32,000 bases of DNA, taken from assembly GCF_001017655.1 (NCBI RefSeq), contig NZ_CP010904.1, positions 960,001 to 992,000 on the forward strand. Reading direction: 5' to 3'. Below the pieces are notes generated by a model. It saw only the letters and a list, made by a program, of their open reading frames with translations, did not search any database and was not told where the DNA came from. Origin of the DNA: Kiritimatiella glycovorans. Lineage in GTDB: Bacteria > Verrucomicrobiota > Kiritimatiellia > Kiritimatiellales > Kiritimatiellaceae. Positions 3,578 to 20,835 of this stretch are shown here, piece by piece; position 1 is the first letter of the stretch, and every line of letters begins with the position of its first letter. Both the position numbers and the translations under genes were made by a program.

Positions 3578-6448
3578 ATGGTCTCCGTTCCCATGGAATC
3601 AGCAACAGGCAGTCAGGGAAGCCGCGTATGGAGGGGCGTTGCCGCCGCTCTGGTGTTCATCACGCTCGCCGTCTCCGCCGAAGCGCAGTCGGTTTCGAGC
3701 ATGTCGACCAGCCAGCTCATCTCGCAGGCGGAGTCGATGCTGGCGGAAAAAAGGTACGGTCAGCTTCCCGAATACCTGAATGAGATCATCACCCGTCTCA
3801 GCGAGATCGAGAGCGAGGATGCGCGCGGCACGCTGGACTTCGCACGCTTCCGGCTCGGCGAGGCGTACTTCTTCACCGAACAGTACGACAAGGCGGTCAC
3901 CACCTTTGAGACGTATCTCAAGGAGATGCCGAAGGGTCAATGGCGGCAGTCGGCCAGCATCTACACCGCCGAGGCCCACGCCATGCGGCAGAACTGGCAG
4001 GGGATTATCGATGCCCTCGAGCCCGTCATGGCCGAAGCCGCGGAGCTTTCCGAAAAGCGCAGACGACTCGCGAGCCTGCTGATCGGCCAGGCGAATTTCA
4101 AGCTGGAGCAGTGGGGCGAGGCCTATCCCGCGCTTCGCTACGCGATGGACCATGCCGAGCGCGATGAAGTGCGGCGCAATGCCACCGTGATGGCGGTCAC
4201 CTGTCTCGTGCGTCTCGACCGGTTCGACGAGCTCAGCCGCCTCCTGCCCAGGGTTTACCAGTCCGACGCCCGCTACGACGTGGCGCTGAATATCGCCCTG
4301 ATGGAAGGCGGGGCGCGCAAATACGACGCCGAGCAGTACATGGAGGCGCTGCTTCTCTACCGGCTCGTGTTCCTCAAGTCGGAACTGCTCGATCGCCTCA
4401 AGGCCGACATGGCCGCAAATAAAAAAATCGTGGAGGAAAAGTTCCGGGCCGGCGCGGGCAAGGATTACGATCGGTACAAAGAGCGCAAGCGGCGCGCGGA
4501 ACGGGAACTCGAAACGCAGCAGGAGCAGCTCCGGGAGCTGCAGGACATCCCCGATTACGATATCGATATCCGCATGCGCATCGCCCAGACCTACGACGGG
4601 ATGAAGCGTCACTGGCCCGCCTACCTGCTCTACCGTTCCATCTACCGCAACCACCCCGACCACCAGCTCGCCGAGACCGCGCGCTATGCGACGTTTTCCT
4701 CTCTGCTCGGCCTGAAGCTCGAAGAGCGCGCCGTCGAGGAGGGCATCGCCTATCTGGACGATCATCCGCGCGGCGAATACTGGGAGCAGGTTTCGCTCAA
4801 TCTTACGCGCCTGCACATGAAGAACGGCGACTTCGAGCGGGCTTTGGCGATGGCGGGGCGCGCCCTGGAGGAACGCCCGCGGCATTCCGACCGCGACGAG
4901 CTGCTCTACCTGACGGGCTTCAGCCATTTCAAGCAGGGCGATTACGAGAAGGCGATCGGGCAGTTCGCGGAGGTCAGCGAAGATCACCCCGGCAGCTCGT
5001 TCGCCGAACCCGCCGGGTACTGGCACGGGATGTGTCTGCTCTACCGCGGCAAATATCCGGAGGCGCGTGCGCAATTCGCTTCGTTCATCGACACCTACCC
5101 CGACAGCCGGTTCGCGCAGGACGCCACCTACCGCCTGGGCGTCTGTTATTACGGCGAGGGCGAGATCGAACAGGCGGAGGAAACCTTCTCGCAGTTCATC
5201 GAGAAGTATCCGCTCAGCGACCTGCTCTCCGAGGCCTACGCCATGCGCGCCGATATCGAAGCCTCCCGCGGCGAGGTCGAGGCCGCGTACGAGGATTACG
5301 TCAAGGCGCGCGAAAACGCGAAACACGCCTACCAGGTCAGCTATGCCGTCTTCCGCAGCGCGAAGCTGTACGAGATGGAAGGCCGCTACGAAGAGATCAT
5401 CGAGATCATGAACGGCTACCTGGAGCGCTGGGGCGAGGAAGCGGATGTCGCCGAGGCGGCGTACTGGATCGGCAAGGCGCGCCGTGAGCAGGGCAATCCG
5501 GCCGGGGCGCTGGAGGCCTATCTCGACGCGATTACGCGCTTCGGCGACGATCAGAGCAATTACGGCGTGGACCTGATCATCGACGATATCGTCAACCGCA
5601 CATCCGAGTTCGAGGGCAGCGAGGGTTATGAGCAATTCCTCAGGGAACTGGAATTCAAACTCCGCCGCATGGGCGGGGACAAGAGGACGCTGAAACTGCG
5701 GCTGCAGACGCTTTTCGCTCAGACCACCGACTCGGACGACAAACGCGAACAGTATATGCAGCAGATCCTGCAGCCGGAGCTGATCGACGAGGCCGCCCCG
5801 TCCACGCTCGCGCTCATGAGCCGTGCCGCCTATGCGCGCGGGAAGTACGACCTGGTGCAGAAGGCCTACACCGAGTTCAGGGAGCGGCACGAGGCCTCGG
5901 ATCTCTTCCTCGATGCCATGCTCGCCCGCGCGGGCGTCCACATGGTGGACGAGGAATTCGACAAGGCGGAACCGCTGCTGAACGACATCCTCGACCGCTA
6001 CGGGTACGTCGCCGACACCGGCGAGGCCCAGAAGATGCTGGCCGATGTCTACCGGGAGAAGGGCCAGTACGAACAGGCCGTCGAGAATTATAAGAAGATC
6101 TTCTCCGTCCCGGCCTGGGGTGGCGAGATGAAGCCCGAGGCCCTGTACTGGATGGGTGTCAGCCACTTTGAAAACGGTGACGTGCGCAAGGCGTTCGGCT
6201 TCTTCCAGCGCGTGTACGTGCTGTACGAAGCCTATCCCCAGTGGGCGGCGCGGGCCTACCTCAAGAGCGCGCGCTGTCTCAAAATTATGGGCAAACAATC
6301 CGAGGCCCTCGCCACGTACAGGGAAATGCTGAACAAGCGTGAAGTCTACGCCGGACTGCCTGAGTACGAGGAGGCGCTGGAGCTGCGGGACGAGCTGCAG
6401 GCCGAGCTGCCGGAGTCGACGGCTGAAGAGGCGTCGGAGGAATCGTAA
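3578..6448 (+). CDS. Large secreted tetratricopeptide-repeat (TPR) protein, first gene of the ExbBD-associated cluster
   Basis: 956 aa. Signal-peptide-like N-terminus (VAAALVFITLAVSAEA/QS). Many TPR-like helix pairs recur (e.g. LGEAYFFTEQYDKAVTTFETYL, YLTGFSHFKQGDYEKAIGQF, YRLGVCYYGEGEIEQAEETF, YWMGVSHFENGDVRKAFGFF). A charged coiled-coil-like segment sits around KERKRRAERELETQQEQLRELQ. The start is uncertain (ATG 3578 or 3593; neither has a clear SD). Confidence 0.85.
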   Translation: MVSVPMESATGSQGSRVWRGVAAALVFITLAVSAEAQSVSSMSTSQLISQAESMLAEKRYGQLPEYLNEIITRLSEIESEDARGTLDFARFRLGEAYFFTEQYDKAVTTFETYLKEMPKGQWRQSASIYTAEAHAMRQNWQGIIDALEPVMAEAAELSEKRRRLASLLIGQANFKLEQWGEAYPALRYAMDHAERDEVRRNATVMAVTCLVRLDRFDELSRLLPRVYQSDARYDVALNIALMEGGARKYDAEQYMEALLLYRLVFLKSELLDRLKADMAANKKIVEEKFRAGAGKDYDRYKERKRRAERELETQQEQLRELQDIPDYDIDIRMRIAQTYDGMKRHWPAYLLYRSIYRNHPDHQLAETARYATFSSLLGLKLEERAVEEGIAYLDDHPRGEYWEQVSLNLTRLHMKNGDFERALAMAGRALEERPRHSDRDELLYLTGFSHFKQGDYEKAIGQFAEVSEDHPGSSFAEPAGYWHGMCLLYRGKYPEARAQFASFIDTYPDSRFAQDATYRLGVCYYGEGEIEQAEETFSQFIEKYPLSDLLSEAYAMRADIEASRGEVEAAYEDYVKARENAKHAYQVSYAVFRSAKLYEMEGRYEEIIEIMNGYLERWGEEADVAEAAYWIGKARREQGNPAGALEAYLDAITRFGDDQSNYGVDLIIDDIVNRTSEFEGSEGYEQFLRELEFKLRRMGGDKRTLKLRLQTLFAQTTDSDDKREQYMQQILQPELIDEAAPSTLALMSRAAYARGKYDLVQKAYTEFRERHEASDLFLDAMLARAGVHMVDEEFDKAEPLLNDILDRYGYVADTGEAQKMLADVYREKGQYEQAVENYKKIFSVPAWGGEMKPEALYWMGVSHFENGDVRKAFGFFQRVYVLYEAYPQWAARAYLKSARCLKIMGKQSEALATYREMLNKREVYAGLPEYEEALELRDELQAELPESTAEEASEES

Positions 6449-6451
6449 GTT

Positions 6452-7300
6452 ATGCGTTTTAAGCGGATGGTATGGTGTGGAGTGCTGATGGCGGCTGCGG
6501 CGGTGACGGCGCAGGATGAGCCTCTGGCGCGCATGACGCTGCAGAGCGGGAAGAAGTGGGTGGTCTATCTCCAGGGGCGCAAGGGCGATGTGCTCGAGAT
6601 GCGCCGCAAAGGCGATCAGAACGCGATCCAGATGCCCGCTTCCGCCTTCAGCGAAATGGAATTCCGCATCGAGGTGGACCTCGAAGAGGCCCGCGACTGG
6701 TATCGCAAAGGGGAATTCGACCGCATTCGCCAGGAAGTGGGCGGTCTGATCGAGGAACGACTTCCCTATCTCGATATCCCCAACAATCTTACGCCGTACT
6801 CGATTCTCATGCTCAAGGCGAACTACTGGGACGGGCATTACGATGAAGTCGTGGAGTCCGCGGAACGGTTGAGCGAGTCGCTCGACGACGACGTGCGCAG
6901 GACCGCGGAGGGATTCCGCGCCCTCACGCACCTGGAGCGCGAGGAGACCAACGACGCCCGCCGCATTATCGAGAAGCTCGACATCCGCGAGGATGCGGAG
7001 GGACAGGGTGCCATGGACTGGTATCTGCTCTCGCTCTACAGGCAGCAGCGCGGCGAACTGATTTCCTCTCAGGAAACCGTCGCGCACGTGGTGGCCTTTC
7101 ATCCGCGCGATTTCGAGTGGATGCCGGCCGCCCTTCATCATTCGGCCGAGTTGTACGGACTTTCCGATGACTTCAACGCGGCCGACCGCGTCATCGCGGA
7201 AGTGCGGACGTTCTTCGGTCATACATTCTGGAGCAACCGGGTGGATTCACTCCAGACCCGGTTGCGTGAACTCGAACGTGAAGCCATGAAATCGGAGTGA
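6452..7300 (+). CDS. Secreted hypothetical protein (helical, TPR-like C-terminal half)
   Basis: 282 aa. Starts 3 nt after the TPR gene stop. Signal peptide MRFKRMVWCGVLMAAAAVTA/QDE. I recognise no family. Coding is supported by position in the operon and non-shadow amino-acid composition. Confidence 0.7.
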   Translation: MRFKRMVWCGVLMAAAAVTAQDEPLARMTLQSGKKWVVYLQGRKGDVLEMRRKGDQNAIQMPASAFSEMEFRIEVDLEEARDWYRKGEFDRIRQEVGGLIEERLPYLDIPNNLTPYSILMLKANYWDGHYDEVVESAERLSESLDDDVRRTAEGFRALTHLEREETNDARRIIEKLDIREDAEGQGAMDWYLLSLYRQQRGELISSQETVAHVVAFHPRDFEWMPAALHHSAELYGLSDDFNAADRVIAEVRTFFGHTFWSNRVDSLQTRLRELEREAMKSE

Positions 7301-7340: not shown

Positions 7341-8150
7341 ATGTACAAGACGAAAGATACCCGACGGATGACGAAAGCGTTCTTCGCCGTGATGGCCCTG
7401 GTCCTGTTTGCGGCGGCAGCGGCCTGGGCGCAGGAGGAGGGCGCGGCGGCCGAAGATCCCGAAAAGATGCTGACGCTCTGGGACATGATCAAGGCCGGCG
7501 GCTGGGCGATGGTCCCGCTGCTGCTCTGCTCGCTCGCCACGGTCACGTTCATCGTCCAGAACGCCCTCGTGCTGAGCGAGAAGAAAATGCTGCGCCCGGA
7601 CCTCGTGCCCGGCCTGAAGCGCAAAATGGCCGACAAGGATCTCGCCGGCGTGAAGGAAGTCTGCAGCAGCGAACGTTCCCTGCTCACCGATGTGCTCGGG
7701 GCGGGTCTTGAGCGGTGCGGCGGAGCGGACGACCTCGAGATGGAAAACGTCAAAGAGGCTATTGACGAGGCCGGAACCGAACAGATGGCCACCTACATGA
7801 AACCGATCAACTACCTCTCGATCATCGGCGCGGTCTCGCCGATGCTCGGACTGCTCGGTACGGTGATCGGTATGGTCAAGGCGTTCCAGACGATCGGCAC
7901 CCAGGGGATGGGCCGGCCCGAAATGCTGGCGGCCAATATCGGGGAGGCCCTCATCACGACGGCCACGGGCCTGATCATCGCCATTCCCGCCATGCTGTTC
8001 TATTTCTTTTTCCGCAACAACTTCACCAAGTATATGGCCACGATGGGGCGCACCGTGGGCGGCATGCTCGACGCGCTGTGCACCGGCCGCGTTCCGGAAG
8101 AGGAGGGACTCGAGGAAGCCGCCGCGGAGGGCGAAACGGAGACCGCGTAA
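7341..8150 (+). CDS. exbB: MotA/TolQ/ExbB family proton channel
   Basis: 269 aa. Family signature SPMLGLLGTVIGMVKAFQ ... NIGEALITTATGLIIAIPAMLFYFFFRN. N-terminal signal-like segment (LFAAAAAWA/QEE). SD GAAGGAG lies 5 nt upstream. Confidence 0.9.
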   Translation: MYKTKDTRRMTKAFFAVMALVLFAAAAAWAQEEGAAAEDPEKMLTLWDMIKAGGWAMVPLLLCSLATVTFIVQNALVLSEKKMLRPDLVPGLKRKMADKDLAGVKEVCSSERSLLTDVLGAGLERCGGADDLEMENVKEAIDEAGTEQMATYMKPINYLSIIGAVSPMLGLLGTVIGMVKAFQTIGTQGMGRPEMLAANIGEALITTATGLIIAIPAMLFYFFFRNNFTKYMATMGRTVGGMLDALCTGRVPEEEGLEEAAAEGETETA

Positions 8151-8189: not shown

Positions 8190-8597
8190 ATGAAATTCAC
8201 GATGCCCAAAGGAGAAGAGGCCGAGGTGCAGATGGCACCGATGATCGATATGGTGTTTCTGCTGCTCATCTTCTTTATGGTGGCCTCTCAGCTCAACGAG
8301 ATGAACAAGATCGACGTCGACCTGCCCGTGGCCGAGGATTCGGCCATACCGGAAGACCAGTCGGGGCGGCGGCTGATTTCGGTCAAGGAGACCGGACAGG
8401 TCTTCGCCGGACTGAATCCGGTGTCGCTGGAACGGCTTACCGAAATCGTGAAGCAGGAACTGGAGATTAATCCGCAGGTCCGCTTCTTCATCCGCGCCGA
8501 CGAACAGGTGCGCCACGGTGAAGTGAAAAAAGTGATGAAGACCTGCGCCGAGGCCGGGGCGGCCGACCTCATCTTCGCGACCTACCAATCGGAGTAA
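8190..8597 (+). CDS. exbD: ExbD/TolR family biopolymer transport protein (copy 1)
   Basis: 135 aa. N-terminal membrane helix MAPMIDMVFLLLIFFMV keeps the conserved intramembrane Asp. C-terminal periplasmic domain ends ...IRADEQVRHGEVKKVMKTCAEAG. SD GGAGAGGA upstream. Confidence 0.9.
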   Translation: MKFTMPKGEEAEVQMAPMIDMVFLLLIFFMVASQLNEMNKIDVDLPVAEDSAIPEDQSGRRLISVKETGQVFAGLNPVSLERLTEIVKQELEINPQVRFFIRADEQVRHGEVKKVMKTCAEAGAADLIFATYQSE

Positions 8598-8603
8598 CGC
8601 GGC

Positions 8604-9035
8604 ATGGATATTCGTGAAATGCTCGATGAGAAGCCGGAGCTGCAGATCGCGCCGCTGATCGATGTGGTCTTCCTGCTGCTCATCTACTTCATGGTCAGCG
8701 CCTCGCTCATCAAACAGGAGGCCGAACTCGGGGTGACCCTGCCCGGCAAGGTCGAGCAGACCGAAGAAGTCGAGATGCCCGACGAGCAGGTGATCATGAT
8801 CAACGGCTCGGGCAAGGTGCTGCTCAACAATCGCGAATACGGCAATGTCGACTCCCGCGAAATGCCCGAGCTGGTGGCAACGCTCGGCCGCTACCGCCAG
8901 GCGTCAGAGGCCCTCAACACCAAGGCTTTCGTGACGGTCCAGGCGGCGGATGAGGCGCTCCACCAGCGGGTGGTCGATGTGATGAACGCCTGCGCCGCGG
9001 CGGGGATCAAAAACCTTACATTCGGTATTCAGTAA
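8604..9035 (+). CDS. exbD: ExbD/TolR family biopolymer transport protein (copy 2)
   Basis: 143 aa. IAPLIDVVFLLLIYFMV helix keeps the intramembrane Asp. C-terminal ...VQAADEALHQRVVDVMNACAAAGI. Only a 6-nt gap from copy 1. Confidence 0.9.
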   Translation: MDIREMLDEKPELQIAPLIDVVFLLLIYFMVSASLIKQEAELGVTLPGKVEQTEEVEMPDEQVIMINGSGKVLLNNREYGNVDSREMPELVATLGRYRQASEALNTKAFVTVQAADEALHQRVVDVMNACAAAGIKNLTFGIQ

Positions 9036-9038
9036 TCC

Positions 9039-10352
9039 ATGGCCAAAATACGCCGAAGAAAATATAAAAAGACGCACTGGACCCGGAATGCCGCGCTCGT
9101 CAGCATGATCATCCATGCGCTGTTCCTCTTCACCGCCGGATCGATCGTGGCGGTCAAGGTGTTCAAGCAGGCGGAGACGACCTTCGAGGGCTCGAATCGC
9201 GAACGCCCGAAGATGGAGCTGCGCCAGCTCAAGATCCCGGTCACCGTAAAAAATATGCAGCGGCGCAGCAGGCGCCCCGCGGTTCAGGTGCAGCCCCGCC
9301 TGGCGGCGCGCACGGTGGCGGAGCAGAAGATGCCCGATATCAGCCTCCCGAGCCGCGGTCTATCCGGCGACCTGGCCGGAGGTATGGATCTGGGCGGGAG
9401 CGTGGAAGGACTCGGCACCTCGGGCGGAAGCCTCGGATTCGGCATCTCATCGATCAATTTCTTCGGGGTGAAATCCGAGGGGGAACGAGTGATGTTCCTT
9501 ATCTCGGCCCACAATTCGATGATGCTCGATGAACGCGGCGGGATCCCGGCCTACACGAAGGTCAAGGAAGAGATCGTGCGCCTGATCAGAGGCATGTCGC
9601 CCGCGACCGTGTTCAACGTCGCGGTGTTCTCAGGCCACCGGGTCAACATGTTCGCCCAGGAGATGGTGCCGGCGACCGAGCCCAACCGTGACCGCGTCGC
9701 CTCCTGGTTTGCGCAGTTCAACACGTCCCACGACCAGCGCGGCACCCGAGGAAATAACTACCGCCCCTCGCGCACCTTCGAGCCGATCGGCGAACACATC
9801 GTCCATCAGACCCGCGCTCTGATGTCGGCCTTCGAGCAGCAGGCGGACTCGATCTTCATGATCGCGGCCGAGCGCTGGTCCCTCCGCGTGGAGATGACCG
9901 AGGAGGAGCGCATTGAATACCGTGATGACCGCGGCTGGGACCAGGAGCGCCTGAAACAGTGGCGTGAAGTATTCATCCCGCGGGCCCGGAAGGAACTGGA
10001 GCGGATCAACAGAGAGCGGCAGAAGAAAGGTCTTCCCCCCGCCGTTTACCGTCATCTTCCCCACTTTATCCACGAACGCTGGCCGAATAGAGAGCAGCCC
10101 CCTGCGTTCCCTCACTATTCCCAGGACGATCAGGAAGAGACGATCGAAAATGCCGTGATCAGTCACTATCGGCGCGAAGGCCTCGACAAGCCCTCCGTCA
10201 ATATTATCCTCTTCCGCGGGAAAGATGAGGAAATGGACCGTAAGTCCCGGATCGACGCGGATTTCTTCGACGAGATCACGCAGGATTACCGCGGCACCTT
10301 CCGCGTCCTGGAAGGGCTGGAAGGGATCGATTACGAGATGACCGACGACTGA
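9039..10352 (+). CDS. Membrane-anchored protein: TonB/TolA-like N-terminal helix plus degenerate vWA-like periplasmic domain (paralog A)
   Basis: 437 aa. Starts 3 nt after the exbD2 stop. Basic N-terminus, then one hydrophobic helix NAALVSMIIHALFLFTAGSIVAV (S22-x3-H26). Arg/Pro/Gly-rich linker follows. The block FFGVKSEGERVMFLISAHNSMM...VKEEIVRLIRGMSPATVFNVAVF...ADSIFMIAA...SVNIILFRG resembles the strand pattern of a vWA fold, but SAHNS replaces the DxSxS MIDAS. Confidence 0.8.
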   Translation: MAKIRRRKYKKTHWTRNAALVSMIIHALFLFTAGSIVAVKVFKQAETTFEGSNRERPKMELRQLKIPVTVKNMQRRSRRPAVQVQPRLAARTVAEQKMPDISLPSRGLSGDLAGGMDLGGSVEGLGTSGGSLGFGISSINFFGVKSEGERVMFLISAHNSMMLDERGGIPAYTKVKEEIVRLIRGMSPATVFNVAVFSGHRVNMFAQEMVPATEPNRDRVASWFAQFNTSHDQRGTRGNNYRPSRTFEPIGEHIVHQTRALMSAFEQQADSIFMIAAERWSLRVEMTEEERIEYRDDRGWDQERLKQWREVFIPRARKELERINRERQKKGLPPAVYRHLPHFIHERWPNREQPPAFPHYSQDDQEETIENAVISHYRREGLDKPSVNIILFRGKDEEMDRKSRIDADFFDEITQDYRGTFRVLEGLEGIDYEMTDD

Positions 10353-10502
10353 GCCGCCGGCTATGCCGTGCGGCCGGGATGCTCCTGAACAGGGGTCTGA
10401 AGAGGGTAGCCCGCCGCTTTTATCTGGTCTGGTCCCACCTCCATCCGGCATACTCGCCGACATCTTTGAGGCGTTACGGACAGGTTCCCCCCGGAGACGA
10501 AC

Positions 10503-11825
10503 ATGGGTTTGATGGACCGCATAAAGGGCGTTAAAAACCAGGGCCGACCTCACTGGACACGCAATGCCGCGCTGGTGAGTTTGGCGGTGCACGCGCTGCT
10601 TCTGCTGGCCGCGGGATCGATCGTCGCCGTCAAGGTCTACAAGCAGCAGCAGACCACCTTTGTGGGCGGTGACCGCGAGCGTCCGCGGCTGGAGCTGCGC
10701 AAACTCCGCATCCCCATCACGGTCAAGAACATGCAGCGCCGCAGCGCGCGCCCCTCCGTCCAGATCAATCCCCGCCTGGCGGCCCGGACCATGGCGGACC
10801 AGGCCATGCCGGACGTGAGCATGCCCGCGCGCGAACTCGGGGGGGACATGCTCTCCGGGCTCGACCTCGGGGGCGGCGGCGTCGAAGGACTGGGCACCGG
10901 AGGCGGGAGCCTCGGCTTCGGGATCTCGTCGGTCAATTTTTTCGGGGTGAAATCCGAGGGCGAGCGGGTGATGTTCCTCGTCTCCACGTGGAGCGGGATG
11001 ATGGTCGACGATCGCGGCGGGATCCCGGCCTACACCAAGGTCAAAGAGGAAATCGTACGCCTGATCAACGGTATGTCCCCCGCCACGGTGTTCAACGTGG
11101 CGATGTTCGACATCAACAAGGTCAATATGTTCTCGCGTGATATGGTCCCGGCCACAAAGGACAACCGTCGCCGGGTTTCGGACTGGATCGAACCGTTCAA
11201 TACGGAATACGGTCAGCGAGGCGCGCGCGAAAACAACTTCTATCCGCGCCGCACCTACGAGCCCGTAGGAGAGGACATCTGTCATCAGACGAAAGCCCTG
11301 CTCGCGGCGTTTGAGCAGCAGGCGGACTCGGTCTTCATGATCATCGCCGACCGGTGGTCGAAGCGTGAACCGATCACCGAGGAGGAACTGGTCGATTTCT
11401 GGGAGGACCACGGCTGGTCGGTGGAGGAGCAGCAGCACTGGGAGGATGTAATCGTTCCGCGCGTCCAGGATGAACTGGAGCGGATCAACCGAGACAGGAA
11501 GAAAAAGGGTCTTCCTCCCAAGGTGATCCGGCACACCTACGAGTTTGTAGGCGAGCGGTGGCCGGACATGGAGCGCCCCCCCATCCCGCCTCACTACGAC
11601 GAGGAGCAGCAGCTCGAGACGCTCGAGGAGGCGGTGATCTATAACTTCCGGCGCGAGGGGCTGGGCATCCCGTCCGTGAATATCATTCTCTTCCGCGGCG
11701 AAGACGAGGACCTCGATCGGCGCGATCAGCGCACGGCCGCGTTCTTCGACGACATCAGCGACGAGTTCAAGGGCCGTTTCCGCGTGCTCGAGGGGCTTGA
11801 GGCGATCGAGTATGACTATGAATGA
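10503..11825 (+). CDS. Membrane-anchored protein: TonB/TolA-like N-terminal helix plus degenerate vWA-like periplasmic domain (paralog B)
   Basis: 440 aa, colinear with paralog A over the full length. Helix NAALVSLAVHALLLLAAGSIVAV (S26-x3-H30). Core FFGVKSEGERVMFLVSTWSGMM has STWSG in the MIDAS position. SD GGAGAC lies upstream after a 150-nt spacer. Confidence 0.8.
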   Translation: MGLMDRIKGVKNQGRPHWTRNAALVSLAVHALLLLAAGSIVAVKVYKQQQTTFVGGDRERPRLELRKLRIPITVKNMQRRSARPSVQINPRLAARTMADQAMPDVSMPARELGGDMLSGLDLGGGGVEGLGTGGGSLGFGISSVNFFGVKSEGERVMFLVSTWSGMMVDDRGGIPAYTKVKEEIVRLINGMSPATVFNVAMFDINKVNMFSRDMVPATKDNRRRVSDWIEPFNTEYGQRGARENNFYPRRTYEPVGEDICHQTKALLAAFEQQADSVFMIIADRWSKREPITEEELVDFWEDHGWSVEEQQHWEDVIVPRVQDELERINRDRKKKGLPPKVIRHTYEFVGERWPDMERPPIPPHYDEEQQLETLEEAVIYNFRREGLGIPSVNIILFRGEDEDLDRRDQRTAAFFDDISDEFKGRFRVLEGLEAIEYDYE

Positions 11826-11951
11826 GCATGATGAATTCGCGGGCATGGGCGTCTATTCGCTTCACACCGAAAACATTTAACGGGCGAACCGCCAATGGAC
11901 GCAGATCCACGCGAATAATTCTGGGGCTGCTCAGGGTTTCCGCTCAGCGTT

Positions 11952-16513: not shown

Positions 16514-16924
16514 ATGAATAAAGACGAAAAGGCCCGACACGACGATCAGGTCGAATGCGCCTTTCTCGAAGCCGTCGCCCGGCGGCTTCCCATGGACGAT
16601 GAGGTGCTCCGTCCGCTGGCCGAAGCCTATACCCGGCTGGGAGACTACGGGTCCGGGCTCGGCGTGGACCGGCAACTGGCCCGTCTCTGCCCCGAAGATC
16701 CGCTCGTCTGGTATAACCTGGCCTGCAGCCATGCGCTGCTCGGCGCGGTCGACGAGGCCGTGGCCGCACTCGGACGGGCGGTGGAAATCGGCTACGACGA
16801 CTACGACTGGATGAAACAGGACCGGCACCTCGATCCGCTGCGCGACGACCCGCGCTTTCAGTCGCTGCTCGAATGGGTGTACGCCTACGGCGACGACGAA
16901 GAGGAGTCGTACGAGGAGTTCTAG
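16514..16924 (+). CDS. Small TPR-like protein
   Basis: 136 aa. TPR-type segment LVWYNLACSHALLGAVDEAVAALGRAVEIGYDDYDWMKQDRHLDPLRDDPRFQSLL, typical of a TPR end-of-group domain. Acidic tail. Confidence 0.7.
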   Translation: MNKDEKARHDDQVECAFLEAVARRLPMDDEVLRPLAEAYTRLGDYGSGLGVDRQLARLCPEDPLVWYNLACSHALLGAVDEAVAALGRAVEIGYDDYDWMKQDRHLDPLRDDPRFQSLLEWVYAYGDDEEESYEEF

Positions 16925-17799
16925 GTCTCCACCCCGAGTCCCGCCCGGATCGCGATTCCGACCAGGAAACTCACGGCGGCCACGCCGAGGCTGAGCAGAC
17001 TCATCTCCGTGAAACGGGCGCGGAAGGGTTCGTCGTTGGCTACGGATAGGTAGTAGTTGAACAGGGCGATGATCCCGAGGGCCTCCGCCAGCACGAAGGC
17101 GAGGCAGACCCCGTAGTGCCCGAACACGAGGTAGGGCAGAATCAGCAGCGCCACGGTGATGAAATAGGCGGTGCCGGTGTACAGCGCGGCCTTGACCGGC
17201 CGGCGATCCTGACGTTCCGCCTTGGCCGAGAGGTACTCGGAGGCCGCCATCGACAACGCAGCGGCAAAACCGGTGATCGATCCGCTCAACGCGATGAGTT
17301 CGGTGTTGCGCAGGGCGAAGGAGAGACCGGCGAGCGCCCCGGTCAGTTCAACGAGCGCGTCGTTGAGCCCGAGCACCACCGATCTTATGTAGCGCAGCCG
17401 CTCCTCGTCGATCATCCTGAGCAGCTTTTCCTCGTGCCCCTCCTCGTCGTGAAAGACGCGCTCGGCGTCGCGGATCTTCCCCGCCAGTTCCTCGTAGTGG
17501 TCCTGGGCGTCGTCCTCGTTGCGCTCCATCAGCTTGATGCCGAAGGTCAGCCCGAACACGCGGCTGATCCACGTGTAGAACAGCACCCGCTTCCGGTCGG
17601 GCTCGACGTCCTCACCGGTATAGTTCTTCCAGAGCTCGTAATGCTCCTTTTCGTCGTCGGCGATGCGCCGGAGCACCTCCGCGTTTTCCGAAGCGGACGG
17701 AAGCTCCGCAAGGGACTGGTAGATATGATATTCCGTGATTTCGTTGCGCTGGAATTTCAGCAGCAGCGCCCGCGTCGAGGGGTCTGTCGTCGTCTGCAT
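16921..17799 (-). CDS. VIT1/CCC1 family iron/manganese transporter with N-terminal ferritin-like domain
   Basis: 292 aa. N-terminal ferritin/rubrerythrin-like helices (NEITEYHIYQ..., DEKEHYELW, DEEGHEEKL). C-terminal VIT membrane domain (GLNDALVELTGALAG..., SMAASEYLS...). SD AAAGGAG upstream. Confidence 0.85.
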   Translation of the reverse strand: MQTTTDPSTRALLLKFQRNEITEYHIYQSLAELPSASENAEVLRRIADDEKEHYELWKNYTGEDVEPDRKRVLFYTWISRVFGLTFGIKLMERNEDDAQDHYEELAGKIRDAERVFHDEEGHEEKLLRMIDEERLRYIRSVVLGLNDALVELTGALAGLSFALRNTELIALSGSITGFAAALSMAASEYLSAKAERQDRRPVKAALYTGTAYFITVALLILPYLVFGHYGVCLAFVLAEALGIIALFNYYLSVANDEPFRARFTEMSLLSLGVAAVSFLVGIAIRAGLGVET

Positions 17800-19098: not shown

Positions 19099-20664
19099 TT
19101 ACCGCTTCGATTTCCCGCCGCCCAGGGCGCGGCGGAACTCCCGCGGCTCGGGACTGCCCAGGGCGGCGGTGAGGGCGAAATAGATGACGGCCCCGCCCGC
19201 GACCGCCCCGAGCACGGCGCCGATCTGGGCGGCTTTGACGGGGAGCGCGCCGCCCATGCCCCGTAAAACTCTGTGCAGAAGAAGGGCGGCGGGCACGAGC
19301 GCGGCGGTGCCCGCCGCGGCGCGCAGCGCCGAGAATCGGAGAACCTTCCAGTTCAGGGGGGCAGTCTCCCGCTGCAGAATGCGCATCAGCGCCGCGGCGT
19401 GCGCGGCCTCGGCCAGCACCGTGGCGAGCGCGATCCCGCCGTGCTTGTACGGCCTCGGCAGCGCGAGGATCAGCGTCACGCTCAGCACGAGATTCAGAAC
19501 CATCGCCGCGGCGCCCACCCGCACCGGCGTCCGGGTGTCCTGGCGCGCGTAAAAAGCGGGAATGAGCACCTTGGCGGCGCTGAACACCAGCAGACCGGGC
19601 GCGTAGCAGCGCAGCGCAATCGCCGTGAGCTGCGTCGACTGCCCGTCGAAAATCCGCCATTCGAAAAGCATCCGCACCACCGGTACCGCCAGGACACCCA
19701 GACCCGCGGCGGCGGGAAGCATCAGGTAAAACATGCGGCGCAGCCCGTCGCCCGTCTCCGACGCAATGCGGCTGTGATCGGCCCGCGCGGCATGACCGGA
19801 AAACACGGGCAGAAGCACCGACCCGAGCGCTGTGGCGAAAATGCCGAGGGGAAAGTAGATGAGGCGCTCGCTGAAAAAAAGCGCCGCGGGCGCCTGCGGG
19901 CCTACGGCGTAGGCGAGAAGGCGGTCGATCACCACGTTGAACTGCGTGACCGCCATGCCCAGCGCCGCGGGGCCCATCAGCTGGATCACGCGGCGGACGC
20001 GCGGATCGCGGGTGTCGGGGTCGAAGCCCGGCCGGAACCCCCGTTCGATCGCGGAGGGCACCTGGACCAGCCACTGCAGGATGCCCGCGAGTACGACCGC
20101 CCAGGCGACGACCCGGATCTGCCCCGCGGGTCCGCCTCCGACCTGCGGACAGATCAGCACGACCGCCGCGATCCAGACGAGATTGAGCAGACACGGAGCG
20201 GCAGCGGGGACCGCATAATGGCCGCAGGCGTTGAGGGCCGCGCGGAAGAGCGCCGCAAGGCAGATGAACAGCATGTAGGGAAACATGATCCGCGTGAGAT
20301 CGAGCACCGGCTGCAGACGGTCCGGGACGGCGGCCAACGACAGGAGACCGTGAGCGGAGAGCACCACTCCCGCCGTGAGGGCGAGCAGGACGAGGGCAGC
20401 CAGCGAGAACACCTTCCGCGCGAAGATCCAGGCCGCATCCCGCCCCGTGTGTTCCAGGTCGTGCGTGAACACGGGGATGAACGACGAGGAAAGAGCGCCT
20501 TCGCCGAACAGCCGCCGGAACAGATTGGGAAGCGTAAAGGCGAGCACGAACGAGGACATCGCCCCCGAGGTGCCGAAAAAACCGGCCATGAGCACGTCGC
20601 GCGCCAGTCCCAGCACACGGCTCAGCAGGGTGCATCCCCCCACCGTCGTGACCGATTTCAGCAT
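19099..20664 (-). CDS. murJ: Lipid II flippase MurJ (MviN family)
   Basis: Family-typical N-terminus MLKSVTTVGGCTLLSRVLGLARDVLMAGFFGTSGAMSSFVLAFTLPNLFRRLFGEGALSSSFIPVF. Polytopic membrane protein. Start taken at ATG 20664; 20691 is possible. Confidence 0.9.
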   Translation of the reverse strand: MLKSVTTVGGCTLLSRVLGLARDVLMAGFFGTSGAMSSFVLAFTLPNLFRRLFGEGALSSSFIPVFTHDLEHTGRDAAWIFARKVFSLAALVLLALTAGVVLSAHGLLSLAAVPDRLQPVLDLTRIMFPYMLFICLAALFRAALNACGHYAVPAAAPCLLNLVWIAAVVLICPQVGGGPAGQIRVVAWAVVLAGILQWLVQVPSAIERGFRPGFDPDTRDPRVRRVIQLMGPAALGMAVTQFNVVIDRLLAYAVGPQAPAALFFSERLIYFPLGIFATALGSVLLPVFSGHAARADHSRIASETGDGLRRMFYLMLPAAAGLGVLAVPVVRMLFEWRIFDGQSTQLTAIALRCYAPGLLVFSAAKVLIPAFYARQDTRTPVRVGAAAMVLNLVLSVTLILALPRPYKHGGIALATVLAEAAHAAALMRILQRETAPLNWKVLRFSALRAAAGTAALVPAALLLHRVLRGMGGALPVKAAQIGAVLGAVAGGAVIYFALTAALGSPEPREFRRALGGGKSKR

Positions 20665-20835
20665 ATGATGATCGCGACTCACGCAGCGCAACCTTTCAAC
20701 GCAGAGAAAACGTAAGGGTCCGTTCTCAGGACGCGTTTTTCAAGCATAACGCCCCGGTTCTTCAATTCACGCTTGAGTGAACGCAACAGGAGCATAGACT
20801 GCCCCGATACCGGTAATGGCAAAAGCGAGGCCCCG

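Follow-up and report, generated by a model that had tools for sequence, protein, structure and literature searches.

Tandem vWA-headed proteins behind an ExbB/ExbD-type motor in Kiritimatiella glycovorans: candidate force transducers without a metal site

Two paralogous genes of Kiritimatiella glycovorans lie directly behind the genes of an ExbB/ExbD-type proton motor, and they raise the question of what that motor moves, and to what end. They fall in the stretch analyzed here, 32,000 nucleotides of contig NZ_CP010904.1 (positions 960,001 to 992,000 of the forward strand), which we call the window and on which positions are numbered unless another locus is named. Paralog A (9039..10352, + strand) encodes 437 aa and paralog B (10503..11825, + strand) 440 aa. 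An earlier reading made from the sequence alone, referred to below as the original prediction, took the two for stator-coupled transducers with a TonB/TolA-type anchor helix and a new head domain. We think it probable that A and B are lineage-specific duplicates of the proteins described as "vWA force transducers" (with a von Willebrand factor A, or vWA, domain), powered by the adjacent motor, and we favor polysaccharide acquisition as the process they serve.

The vWA force transducers were described in [quoted passage not shown] (Mol Biol Evol 2025;42(6):msaf138; PMC12204202). In the passages of that paper drawn on throughout this text, the class is built from a transmembrane helix that carries an SHLS motif and a His, a disordered linker that includes a "motor box" and, at the C-terminus, a vWA domain. 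It was reached by way of the neighbors of motor genes in species that have neither TolA nor TonB, Tichowtungia aerotolerans, the seed from the Kiritimatiellota, among them. The synteny described for the Planctomycetes-Verrucomicrobia-Chlamydiae (PVC) bacteria consists of a gene for a TPR protein, a gene like tolQ, two heterologous tolR-like genes and then the vWA gene. A and B have the SHLS-type His helix, the disordered linker with its box, the vWA head and the operon layout, and the three-part architecture, the helix His and the PVC operon are what they have in common with the class. On this comparison of sequence and model, A and B are predicted members of a known, computationally defined kind of transducer. 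The transducer reading in the original prediction is an independent rediscovery of the class as these passages present it, and the claim of a new head domain falls, the class having been published in 2025.

The motor operon and its two last genes

A and B end an operon with the order TPR, 282 aa, ExbB/TolQ, ExbD, ExbD, A, B, in which the intergenic gaps are 3-40 bp up to A and 150 bp between A and B. The first gene (3578..6448, +) encodes a tetratricopeptide repeat (TPR) protein of 956 aa with an N-terminal signal peptide and matches to many Pfam TPR families, and the second (6452..7300, +) a secreted protein of 282 aa that matches no Pfam family. The motor genes encode an ExbB/TolQ-like proton-channel subunit of 269 aa (7341..8150, +; PF01618 MotA_ExbB, E 8e-31) and two ExbD/TolR-like subunits of 135 aa (8190..8597, +; PF02472, E 1.5e-28) and 143 aa (8604..9035, +; PF02472, E 1.3e-19). 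Both of the latter have a transmembrane (TM) Asp20 (MAPMID20MVFLLL and IAPLID20VVFLLL, respectively), and they are heterologous, about 30% identical as judged by cross-hits. The start codon of A lies 3 bp past the stop codon of the second ExbD gene, and a GGAG occurs 9-12 nt upstream of the ATG of B. Promoter and terminator scans gave chance-level results only, and the 150-bp spacer between A and B had no special fold (z 0.77).

At 100% identity, paralog A matches a hypothetical protein of K. glycovorans at NCBI, which UniRef labels "VWFA domain-containing". The original prediction had put the identity of the two copies at about two-thirds, with 58 of 68 residues identical in the best block. 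We obtained the same count for the block, 263 identical residues of 424 by BLASTP (62%, E = 0.0), and 64% over 435 codons in a global alignment. Both open reading frames (ORFs) are intact and full length, with similar G+C content at third codon positions (GC3, 0.80 and 0.83). Nei-Gojobori estimates were 0.28 for dN and 1.05 for dS, which is near saturation and makes the dN/dS of 0.27 an approximate value; by region, the insert described below had a ratio of 0.44, and the anchor, linker and vWA core one of 0.22. A and B are intact genes under purifying selection, and the relaxed selection or pseudogene features that would have spoken against the original prediction did not appear.

Each protein has a basic N-terminus followed by its sole strongly hydrophobic stretch, residues 21-39 of A (VSMIIHALFLFTAGSIVAV) and 25-43 of B (VSLAVHALLLLAAGSIVAV), with mean Kyte-Doolittle values of 2.1-2.3 against 1.2-1.3 for the next best window. 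The anchor helix of A covers aa 17-41 (9087..9161, +) and includes S22 (nt 9102-9104) and H26 (nt 9114-9116); that of B covers aa 21-45 (nt 10563-10637, +) and includes S26 and H30. Neither helix contains an Asp. Behind the helix is a box, ERPKMELRQLKIPV at aa 55-68 of A (9201..9242, +) and ERPRLELRKLRIPI in B (nt 10677-10718, +), which is a candidate "motor box" for contact with ExbD and would correspond to the motor box of PMC12204202. A linker rich in Gly, Arg and Pro follows (aa 69-135 of A; 9243..9443, +), modeled at low confidence, with a predicted local distance difference test (pLDDT) score below 50 for residues 70-131. Arg, Pro and Gly make up 32-36% of the 92 residues after the helix in the two proteins. 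The basic stretch, the single helix with Ser-x3-His and the R/P/G-rich linker were all features of the original prediction.

Residues 136-437 of A (9444..10349, +) form the predicted vWA-fold head. An AlphaFold2 (AF2) model made from an alignment of 85 family sequences has a mean pLDDT of 78.5; its residues 135-437 mostly exceed 90 and alternate between strands and helices, in a beta-alpha-beta domain. When the head was compared with the PDB by Foldseek, vWA-domain matches were returned at E 7e-7 to 1e-3, among them ITIH1 (E 3e-6), Cachd1, alpha2-delta, an Aeromonas adhesin vWFA domain, TFIIH p44/Ssl1, Rpn10, Sec23 and complement C2a. Relatives of A and B carry Pfam VWA, VWA_2 and VWA_3 matches. 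The model and the structural matches agree with the vWA-like alpha/beta fold originally proposed. They also place the proposed charged insert, about 95 residues at aa 286-380 of A (nt 9894-10178, +), in four helices (288-297, 302-329, 340-347 and 362-378) before a late strand at 386-393, and 40-41% of its residues are charged. The conserved FRVLE end corresponds to the last strand (421-425) and the helix that follows it, and A and B end in the tails FRVLEGLEGIDY and FRVLEGLEAIEY, respectively.

The metal ion-dependent adhesion site (MIDAS) is lost from both heads, as had been claimed. Its first loop is replaced by SAHNS in A (aa 156-160; nt 9504-9518, +) and by STWSG in B (aa 161-165; nt 10983-10997, +), and the canonical metal-dependent signature of the integrin I-domain type (DxSxS plus Thr and Asp) is absent from the two proteins. 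Relatives have D-x-S-x-S/T or D-x-S-x-x at this position. The first Asp is present in 161 of 202 relatives and missing in 41; the full DxSxS/T occurs in 32, accompanied in 24 of them by the beta4 Asp. The MIDAS of this family is normally degenerate, and its loss in A and B is not exceptional. Because both copies have Ser at the first loop position, the data fit a loss that may predate their duplication. P0166, which lies near A and B in our neighbor-joining (NJ) tree, keeps DVSLS and is only 27-28% identical to the two. With the first loop lost in both heads, partner binding in K. glycovorans should be independent of metal. The loss in both copies goes beyond what the passages of PMC12204202 describe.

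The operon is flanked upstream by genes for an NYN-domain protein, threonine synthase (thrC) and DapF (dapF), and downstream, on the other strand, by genes for NAD kinase and a TlyA-type methyltransferase. In the ExbB/TolQ-like protein the first channel helix is preceded by a segment resembling a signal peptide and by a short acidic stretch (MTKAFFAVMALVLFAAAAAWAQEEGAAAEDPEK), an N-terminal extension that recalls "long ExbB" forms. Two long antisense ORFs (9630-11846, -, 738 aa, and 3599-7222, -, 1207 aa) overlap the real genes and are artefacts of a G+C content of 62-68%. PADLOC models, such as that for Zorya, matched none of the 7 operon proteins, and we rejected an anti-phage defence motor on that basis. 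Elsewhere in the window are a rubrerythrin-VIT1 fusion (16921-17799, -) and a MurJ-like flippase ORF without a Pfam match (19099-20691, -), which lies in a stretch of high AT skew (0.24-0.26).

Conservation of the anchor, the operon and the pairing

Our first word-indexed homolog search found 7 relatives only, and profile searches were needed. Among 1.84 billion representatives, a profile picked out 266 cluster representatives at E <= 1e-30; the number rose to 746 at E <= 1e-10. The recurrence of the architecture in the 266 indicates that it did not arise by chance. Identity to A among 85 aligned relatives was 24-34%, with the exception of B at 64%. Named family members come from the Kiritimatiellota (Pontiella, Pontiellaceae, Tichowtungia and Kiritimatiellaceae), the Lentisphaerota (Victivallis and Victivallaceae) and the Verrucomicrobiota/Opitutae (Ruficoccus, Rubellicoccus, Cerasicoccus and Puniceicoccales). 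A Tichowtungia sp. metagenome-assembled genome, for example, has a homolog with 29% identity (locus L019, E 1e-48).

The helix His (H26 of A) is kept in 192 of 202 single-head relatives and the Ser at the S22 position in 172. The complete S-x3-H, whose spacing the original prediction had staked itself on, is kept in 170, and another 19 have Thr or Ala in place of the Ser. The family consensus of the anchor is KSSAALVSLGIHAVLIVVALSFVAV, and that of the box behind it is RPKMxLKKLQVPV. The mean top-residue frequency across the family is 0.8-0.87 for the anchor and box, reaching 0.87 in the most conserved block (residues 61-70), and 0.25-0.6 for the head. Stronger conservation of the anchor and box than of the head is the pattern expected if one motor serves many heads. 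Distant members of the family have classic TonB-like spacers rich in Pro and Glu after the helix.

We found the full operon in four loci of the Kiritimatiellales (L004, L036, L053 and L078), three of the Lentisphaerota (L061, L068 and L077), one of Ruficoccus amylovorans in the Opitutae (L086) and one further locus of the Verrucomicrobiota/Opitutae (L087), and rearranged versions in L017, also of the Kiritimatiellales, L014 and L043. In all, 10 or more loci outside the window share the gene order. The TPR gene also starts the operon in L004, L036, L068, L077, L078, L086 and L087. Homologs of the 282-aa protein, some with a C-terminal TPR, occupy the matching position in L004, L036, L053 and L078. 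This synteny across three PVC phyla is strong comparative evidence for a functional link to the motor. We infer motor coupling from the synteny, from the conservation of the motifs and from the AlphaFold3 model of PMC12204202, in which the helix His lies at the TolA/TonB site on the motor. A stator-coupled transducer, as first proposed for A and B, is well supported by these computations: the genes of an ExbB-ExbD-ExbD motor end 3 bp upstream of A, and the His is kept. What the proposal did not gain is a sequence match to TonB or TolA chains of the PDB.

Comparison with these two proteins suggests a shared mode of working. TonB (E. coli TonB, HasB and their paralogs) shares with A and B a Ser-x3-His signal-anchor, a conserved segment after the helix and an extended linker, and its gene can likewise follow exbB-exbD-exbD. 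In Bacteroides several TonB paralogs per genome share a motor, according to the part of PMC10350073 used here, and the vWA family may be likened to them. However, the TonB_C domain is absent from A and B (no PF03544 match in Pfam/NCBIfam scans at E <= 0.1), and there is no detectable sequence homology. TolA has an S-x3-H anchor on a TolQ/TolR-type motor and a CpoB-like TPR gene nearby, as do A and B, but its domains II and III are absent from them (no TIGR02794 match), and the operon proteins score below every NCBIfam Tol cutoff. The likeness to TonB and TolA is at the level of motifs; the claim is that A and B work like these proteins, not that they are TonB or TolA.

In the NJ tree A and B are mutual closest relatives and cluster with the motor-linked copies of other lineages, from which we conclude that they arose by a lineage-specific duplication of the core copy. 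The original prediction had asked whether orthologs always occur in pairs. They do not: motor-linked orthologs are mostly single-copy (L004, L036, L053, L061, L068, L077, L078 and L086), so a pair is not required. Tandem pairs nevertheless arose independently several times. L087 has proteins of 432 and 429 aa, 64% identical, behind its motor, and an orthologous pair on another contig is 79-82% identical to them copy for copy. L085 has two 436-aa copies (79% identical), and L021 a tandem pair. Some chains combine one anchor with 2-4 tandem vWA heads (P0096, 1424 aa; P0102, 1399 aa; and P0101, P0104, P0105 and P0113, about 780 aa each). The heads of P0096 alternate between loops without DxS (EATPE, DGSRA) and DxSD loops (DVSDR, DASDE). 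The recurring pairs and fusions are compatible with heads that cooperate or are differently specialized, as in the heteromeric pair or two specificities suggested by the original prediction, and prove neither.

Other members depart from the basic plan. P0196 (827 aa) has an N-terminal, presumably cytoplasmic, Ser/Thr protein kinase domain (E 7.5e-27), and P0138, P0172, P0206 and P0216 (about 600-710 aa) are further members with N-terminal extensions, among whose types is a TPR_19 repeat. The kinase and TPR_19 extensions hint at signaling variants. A subgroup of about 400 aa (L063:9971-11170, L064-L075 and L084) is without the helical insert and reads VVLAGPAST where the MIDAS would be. Its genes hold a fixed position, behind that of a conserved 294-aa protein and upstream of tuf-nusG-rplK-rplA-rplJ.

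Glycan clusters of Pontiella and a model for the motor

Clues to the powered process come from copies that lie far from a motor. We recovered 80 genome loci (L005-L084), about 10 of which adjoin motor or operon TPR genes. Pontiella and Pontiellaceae have at least 7-9 family copies per genome, and the motor-distant copies form one large radiation in the NJ tree. These copies lie in co-directional clusters with genes for GH29 fucosidases, GH95, GH141/CBM, GH2 and beta-helix proteins, and the same clusters hold sulfatases, esterases, an MFS transporter and two-component systems. Neighboring sulfatase ORFs are on the strand of the family gene in 53 of 59 cases. Since Pontiella genomes are dense in sulfatases, we did not count proximity to a sulfatase as significant by itself, and used strand bias, tight spacing and the following module instead.

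The module consists of three genes, for a vWA transducer, a protein of about 620 aa whose anchor is the same, and a homolog of the fucoidan lyase FdlA. At 16 loci the gene after that of the transducer encodes the protein of about 620 aa, which has the same anchor and box and a different head (sub-threshold SHD1 matches). In 7 of the 16 the FdlA homolog is third (PDB 7XZ7-7XZF, E 3e-44; L005:13451-14788, +, and L088:11261-12622), which connects the motor-distant transducers with clusters for the use of fucoidan. The gaps of the module in L088 are 14, 2 and 6 bp. The proteins of this second anchor class have about 613-666 aa and an RPKMQLKK box (L005:11382-13280, +; L088:9394-11259; L017:16713-18554; also L022, L025 and L050), and in L017 one lies directly behind the second ExbD gene. 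Proteins of about 365-385 aa (P0090-P0095, L011:11367-12473 and L037:11346-12434) have an identical anchor and linker and a beta-sandwich head that we call PA14-like on sub-threshold Pfam PA14 matches alone (E 9e-5 to 5e-4). An AF2 model of P0094, with its anchor and PA14-like head, reached a pLDDT of 38 and gave no usable fold.

Kiritimatiella glycovorans has been reported to be without TonB-dependent polysaccharide uptake systems (PMC5148204). Together with that report, the Pontiella clusters favor a nutritional, TonB-like role for the family. As the powered process we favor a role at the outer membrane, in capturing or importing polysaccharide, over gliding, on which the passages of PMC12204202 speculate.

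In the model that we propose, A and B would be single-pass inner-membrane proteins of TonB/TolA-like design, in which the vWA head takes the place of the C-terminal TonB or TolA domain. A pentamer of the ExbB/TolQ-like protein, with a heterodimer of the two ExbD/TolR-like proteins, would turn the flow of protons into motion. A or B would bind the pentamer's outer side with the Ser-x3-His face of its anchor helix, and the conserved box that comes next, RP[KR][ML]ELRxLxIP[VI], would touch the periplasmic ExbD dimer. A flexible linker of about 65 residues would then cross the periplasm and allow the head to grip a periplasmic or outer-membrane partner, in K. glycovorans by metal-independent binding. 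Candidates for the partner are the 956-aa TPR protein, the 282-aa protein or some outer-membrane component. Force would thereby reach the outer envelope.

Several observations weigh against this model or limit its reach. The family is a computational prediction without phenotypes, as the passages of PMC12204202 present it, and for the outer-membrane partner there are candidates only. A and B themselves have no match in Pfam or NCBIfam. The SHLS motif is in register in them at its S and H only, the L and S positions being A33 and V37, and the conserved S35 is off-register. A profile of 22 anchor regions, searched against the PDB, recovered no TonB or TolA chain at E <= 10, the TM matches being those of chance. 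The density of sulfatases in Pontiella makes proximity weak as evidence by itself, and the Pontiella loci, being paralogous, are not independent observations. The K. glycovorans window holds only the two motor-linked copies, in a housekeeping neighborhood, and this context, with the CpoB-like TPR protein, fits a Tol-like role equally well.

Alternative readings and meaning of the family

The last point leads to the alternative that survives best. The operon could be a replacement for Tol-Pal, with A and B as TolA analogues on a TolQ/TolR-like motor and the TPR protein as a counterpart of CpoB/YbgF, serving the integrity or constriction of the outer membrane and not uptake. The TPR protein repeatedly matches the YbgF/CpoB model TIGR02795 (173.7 bits over 8 stretches). 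The ExbB-like protein has its best NCBIfam matches to TolQ (82 bits) and ExbB (70 bits), and both ExbD-like proteins score best against TolR. The operon is a single one amid housekeeping genes, and its neighbors in L086, L087 and L004 are lptF/G, rpsR or murB. The family came to light in a study of species without a discernible TolA or TonB, as the passages of PMC12204202 state, and the N-terminus of P0254 faintly matches TolA_full (E 0.085). However, no tolB or pal gene was found in the operon or among the other genes of the window, all of the NCBIfam scores are far under the equivalog cutoffs (those for TolQ and ExbB included), and the score of the TPR protein stems from generic repeats. The motor-distant radiation of Pontiella, in clusters of sulfatases and carbohydrate-active enzymes, is also hard to square with envelope maintenance. 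We therefore regard a Tol-Pal replacement as possible and rather unlikely as an account of the operon, while Tol-like envelope maintenance is a serious alternative for the motor-linked core copies.

A second alternative dispenses with the motor: A and B could be ordinary membrane-anchored vWA scaffold or adhesion proteins, like BatA and BatB, with the motor adjacent by coincidence. Bat operons encode N-terminally TM-anchored vWA proteins in tandem pairs, and, like A and B, these lie beside TPR proteins. The want of sequence-level homology between A or B and TonB or TolA also suits this reading. Against it stand the synteny kept across three phyla, a near-invariant polar His and Ser in the TM helix, a box more conserved than the head, and a start codon for A only 3 bp past the second ExbD gene. 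The window scans gave no BatA, MoxR or DUF58 signal; a BatA-type N-terminal domain was not seen at this locus, where the MIDAS is lost and a motor is linked. A Bat-like role is in our judgment very improbable.

Membership of the other class in PMC12204202, TPH-vWA, is still harder to maintain. In that class the helix would lie in the pore of the pentamer, as that of ExbD/TolR does, and the two proteins would act as a stator pair, obligately heterodimeric. Pairs are tied to this class in the passages of that paper, which report a heterologous pair as typical of it, and A and B are two tandem copies. But their helices have Ser-x3-His and no Asp, the operon has two bona fide ExbD/TolR genes with a TM Asp, which the TPH class is described as lacking, and most orthologs are single-copy. 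Because of the missing helix Asp and the operon's own ExbD pair we do not assign A and B to TPH-vWA, a reading with hardly any probability left. No better placed, and largely refuted, is the idea that one copy is decaying after the duplication and that the missing MIDAS reflects a loss of function: a MIDAS missing from both copies and the 150 bp between the genes could be cited for it, but the full-length ORFs, the dN/dS (0.27 overall, 0.22 for anchor, linker and vWA core), the similar GC3 values and the usual degeneracy of the site in the family (DxSxS/T in 32 of 202, first Asp missing in 41) argue against it, and on the intact ORFs and the dN/dS we rejected a pseudogene or relaxed selection.

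Beside our preferred reading, motor-powered transducers of the vWA class, the survey adds to that class several observations: common decay of the MIDAS, recurrent but non-universal pairs, a radiation in the glycan clusters of Pontiella, multi-head fusions and non-vWA heads. The heads found on the anchor are vWA domains with or without a MIDAS, PA14-like domains and putative SHD1-containing ones, and they occur singly, in pairs or 2-4 per chain. More tentatively, the Ser-x3-His helix and the RPKMxLKKLQVPV box might be a general adaptor in the Kiritimatiellota, perhaps even across the PVC bacteria, through which many substrate-specific periplasmic heads would work on one proton-driven ExbB/ExbD motor and glycans would be captured and imported without SusC or TonB-dependent transporters; the motor-distant copies lie in clusters for the use of fucoidan and sulfated glycans. 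A and B would represent its motor-linked core, and the mucin-import locus MUL1 of Akkermansia may be the same machine. We think that this larger scheme is doubtful as a whole.

In Akkermansia muciniphila, MUL1 includes a large TPR protein, Mul1A, that is required for mucin import, and the system is Sus-like, as the parts of PMC13174399 and PMC12570417 used here describe it. MUL1 resembles our operon in being a locus of PVC bacteria that centers on a large TPR protein. The matches to the NCBIfam model of Mul1B, also of MUL1 (cutoff 75 bits), are far under that cutoff, for the 282-aa protein (E 0.014, 14.6 bits) as for the Ruficoccus protein at L086:6158-7246 (E 0.059, 12.6 bits), and no match to a Mul1A model was obtained. 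The similarity to MUL1 is a lead, not a relationship.

ExbB/ExbD-type motors have long been thought to work through TonB or TolA, and a transducer of a third kind, whose head is of the adhesion type, implies that force from proton flow acts on further processes of the outer envelope. The Kiritimatiellota specialize in degrading the sulfated polysaccharides of algae, and the reported absence of TonB-dependent uptake from K. glycovorans raises the question of the route by which large glycans cross its outer membrane. Many anchor-bearing paralogs in fucosidase, sulfatase and fucoidan-lyase clusters, with anchors better conserved than heads, make the hypothesis of glycan acquisition concrete. A and B are a clean, duplicated example without a MIDAS, and suit questions of metal independence and of cooperation between heads. 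If MUL1 proves to be the same machine, mucin import would supply the first phenotype of the family.

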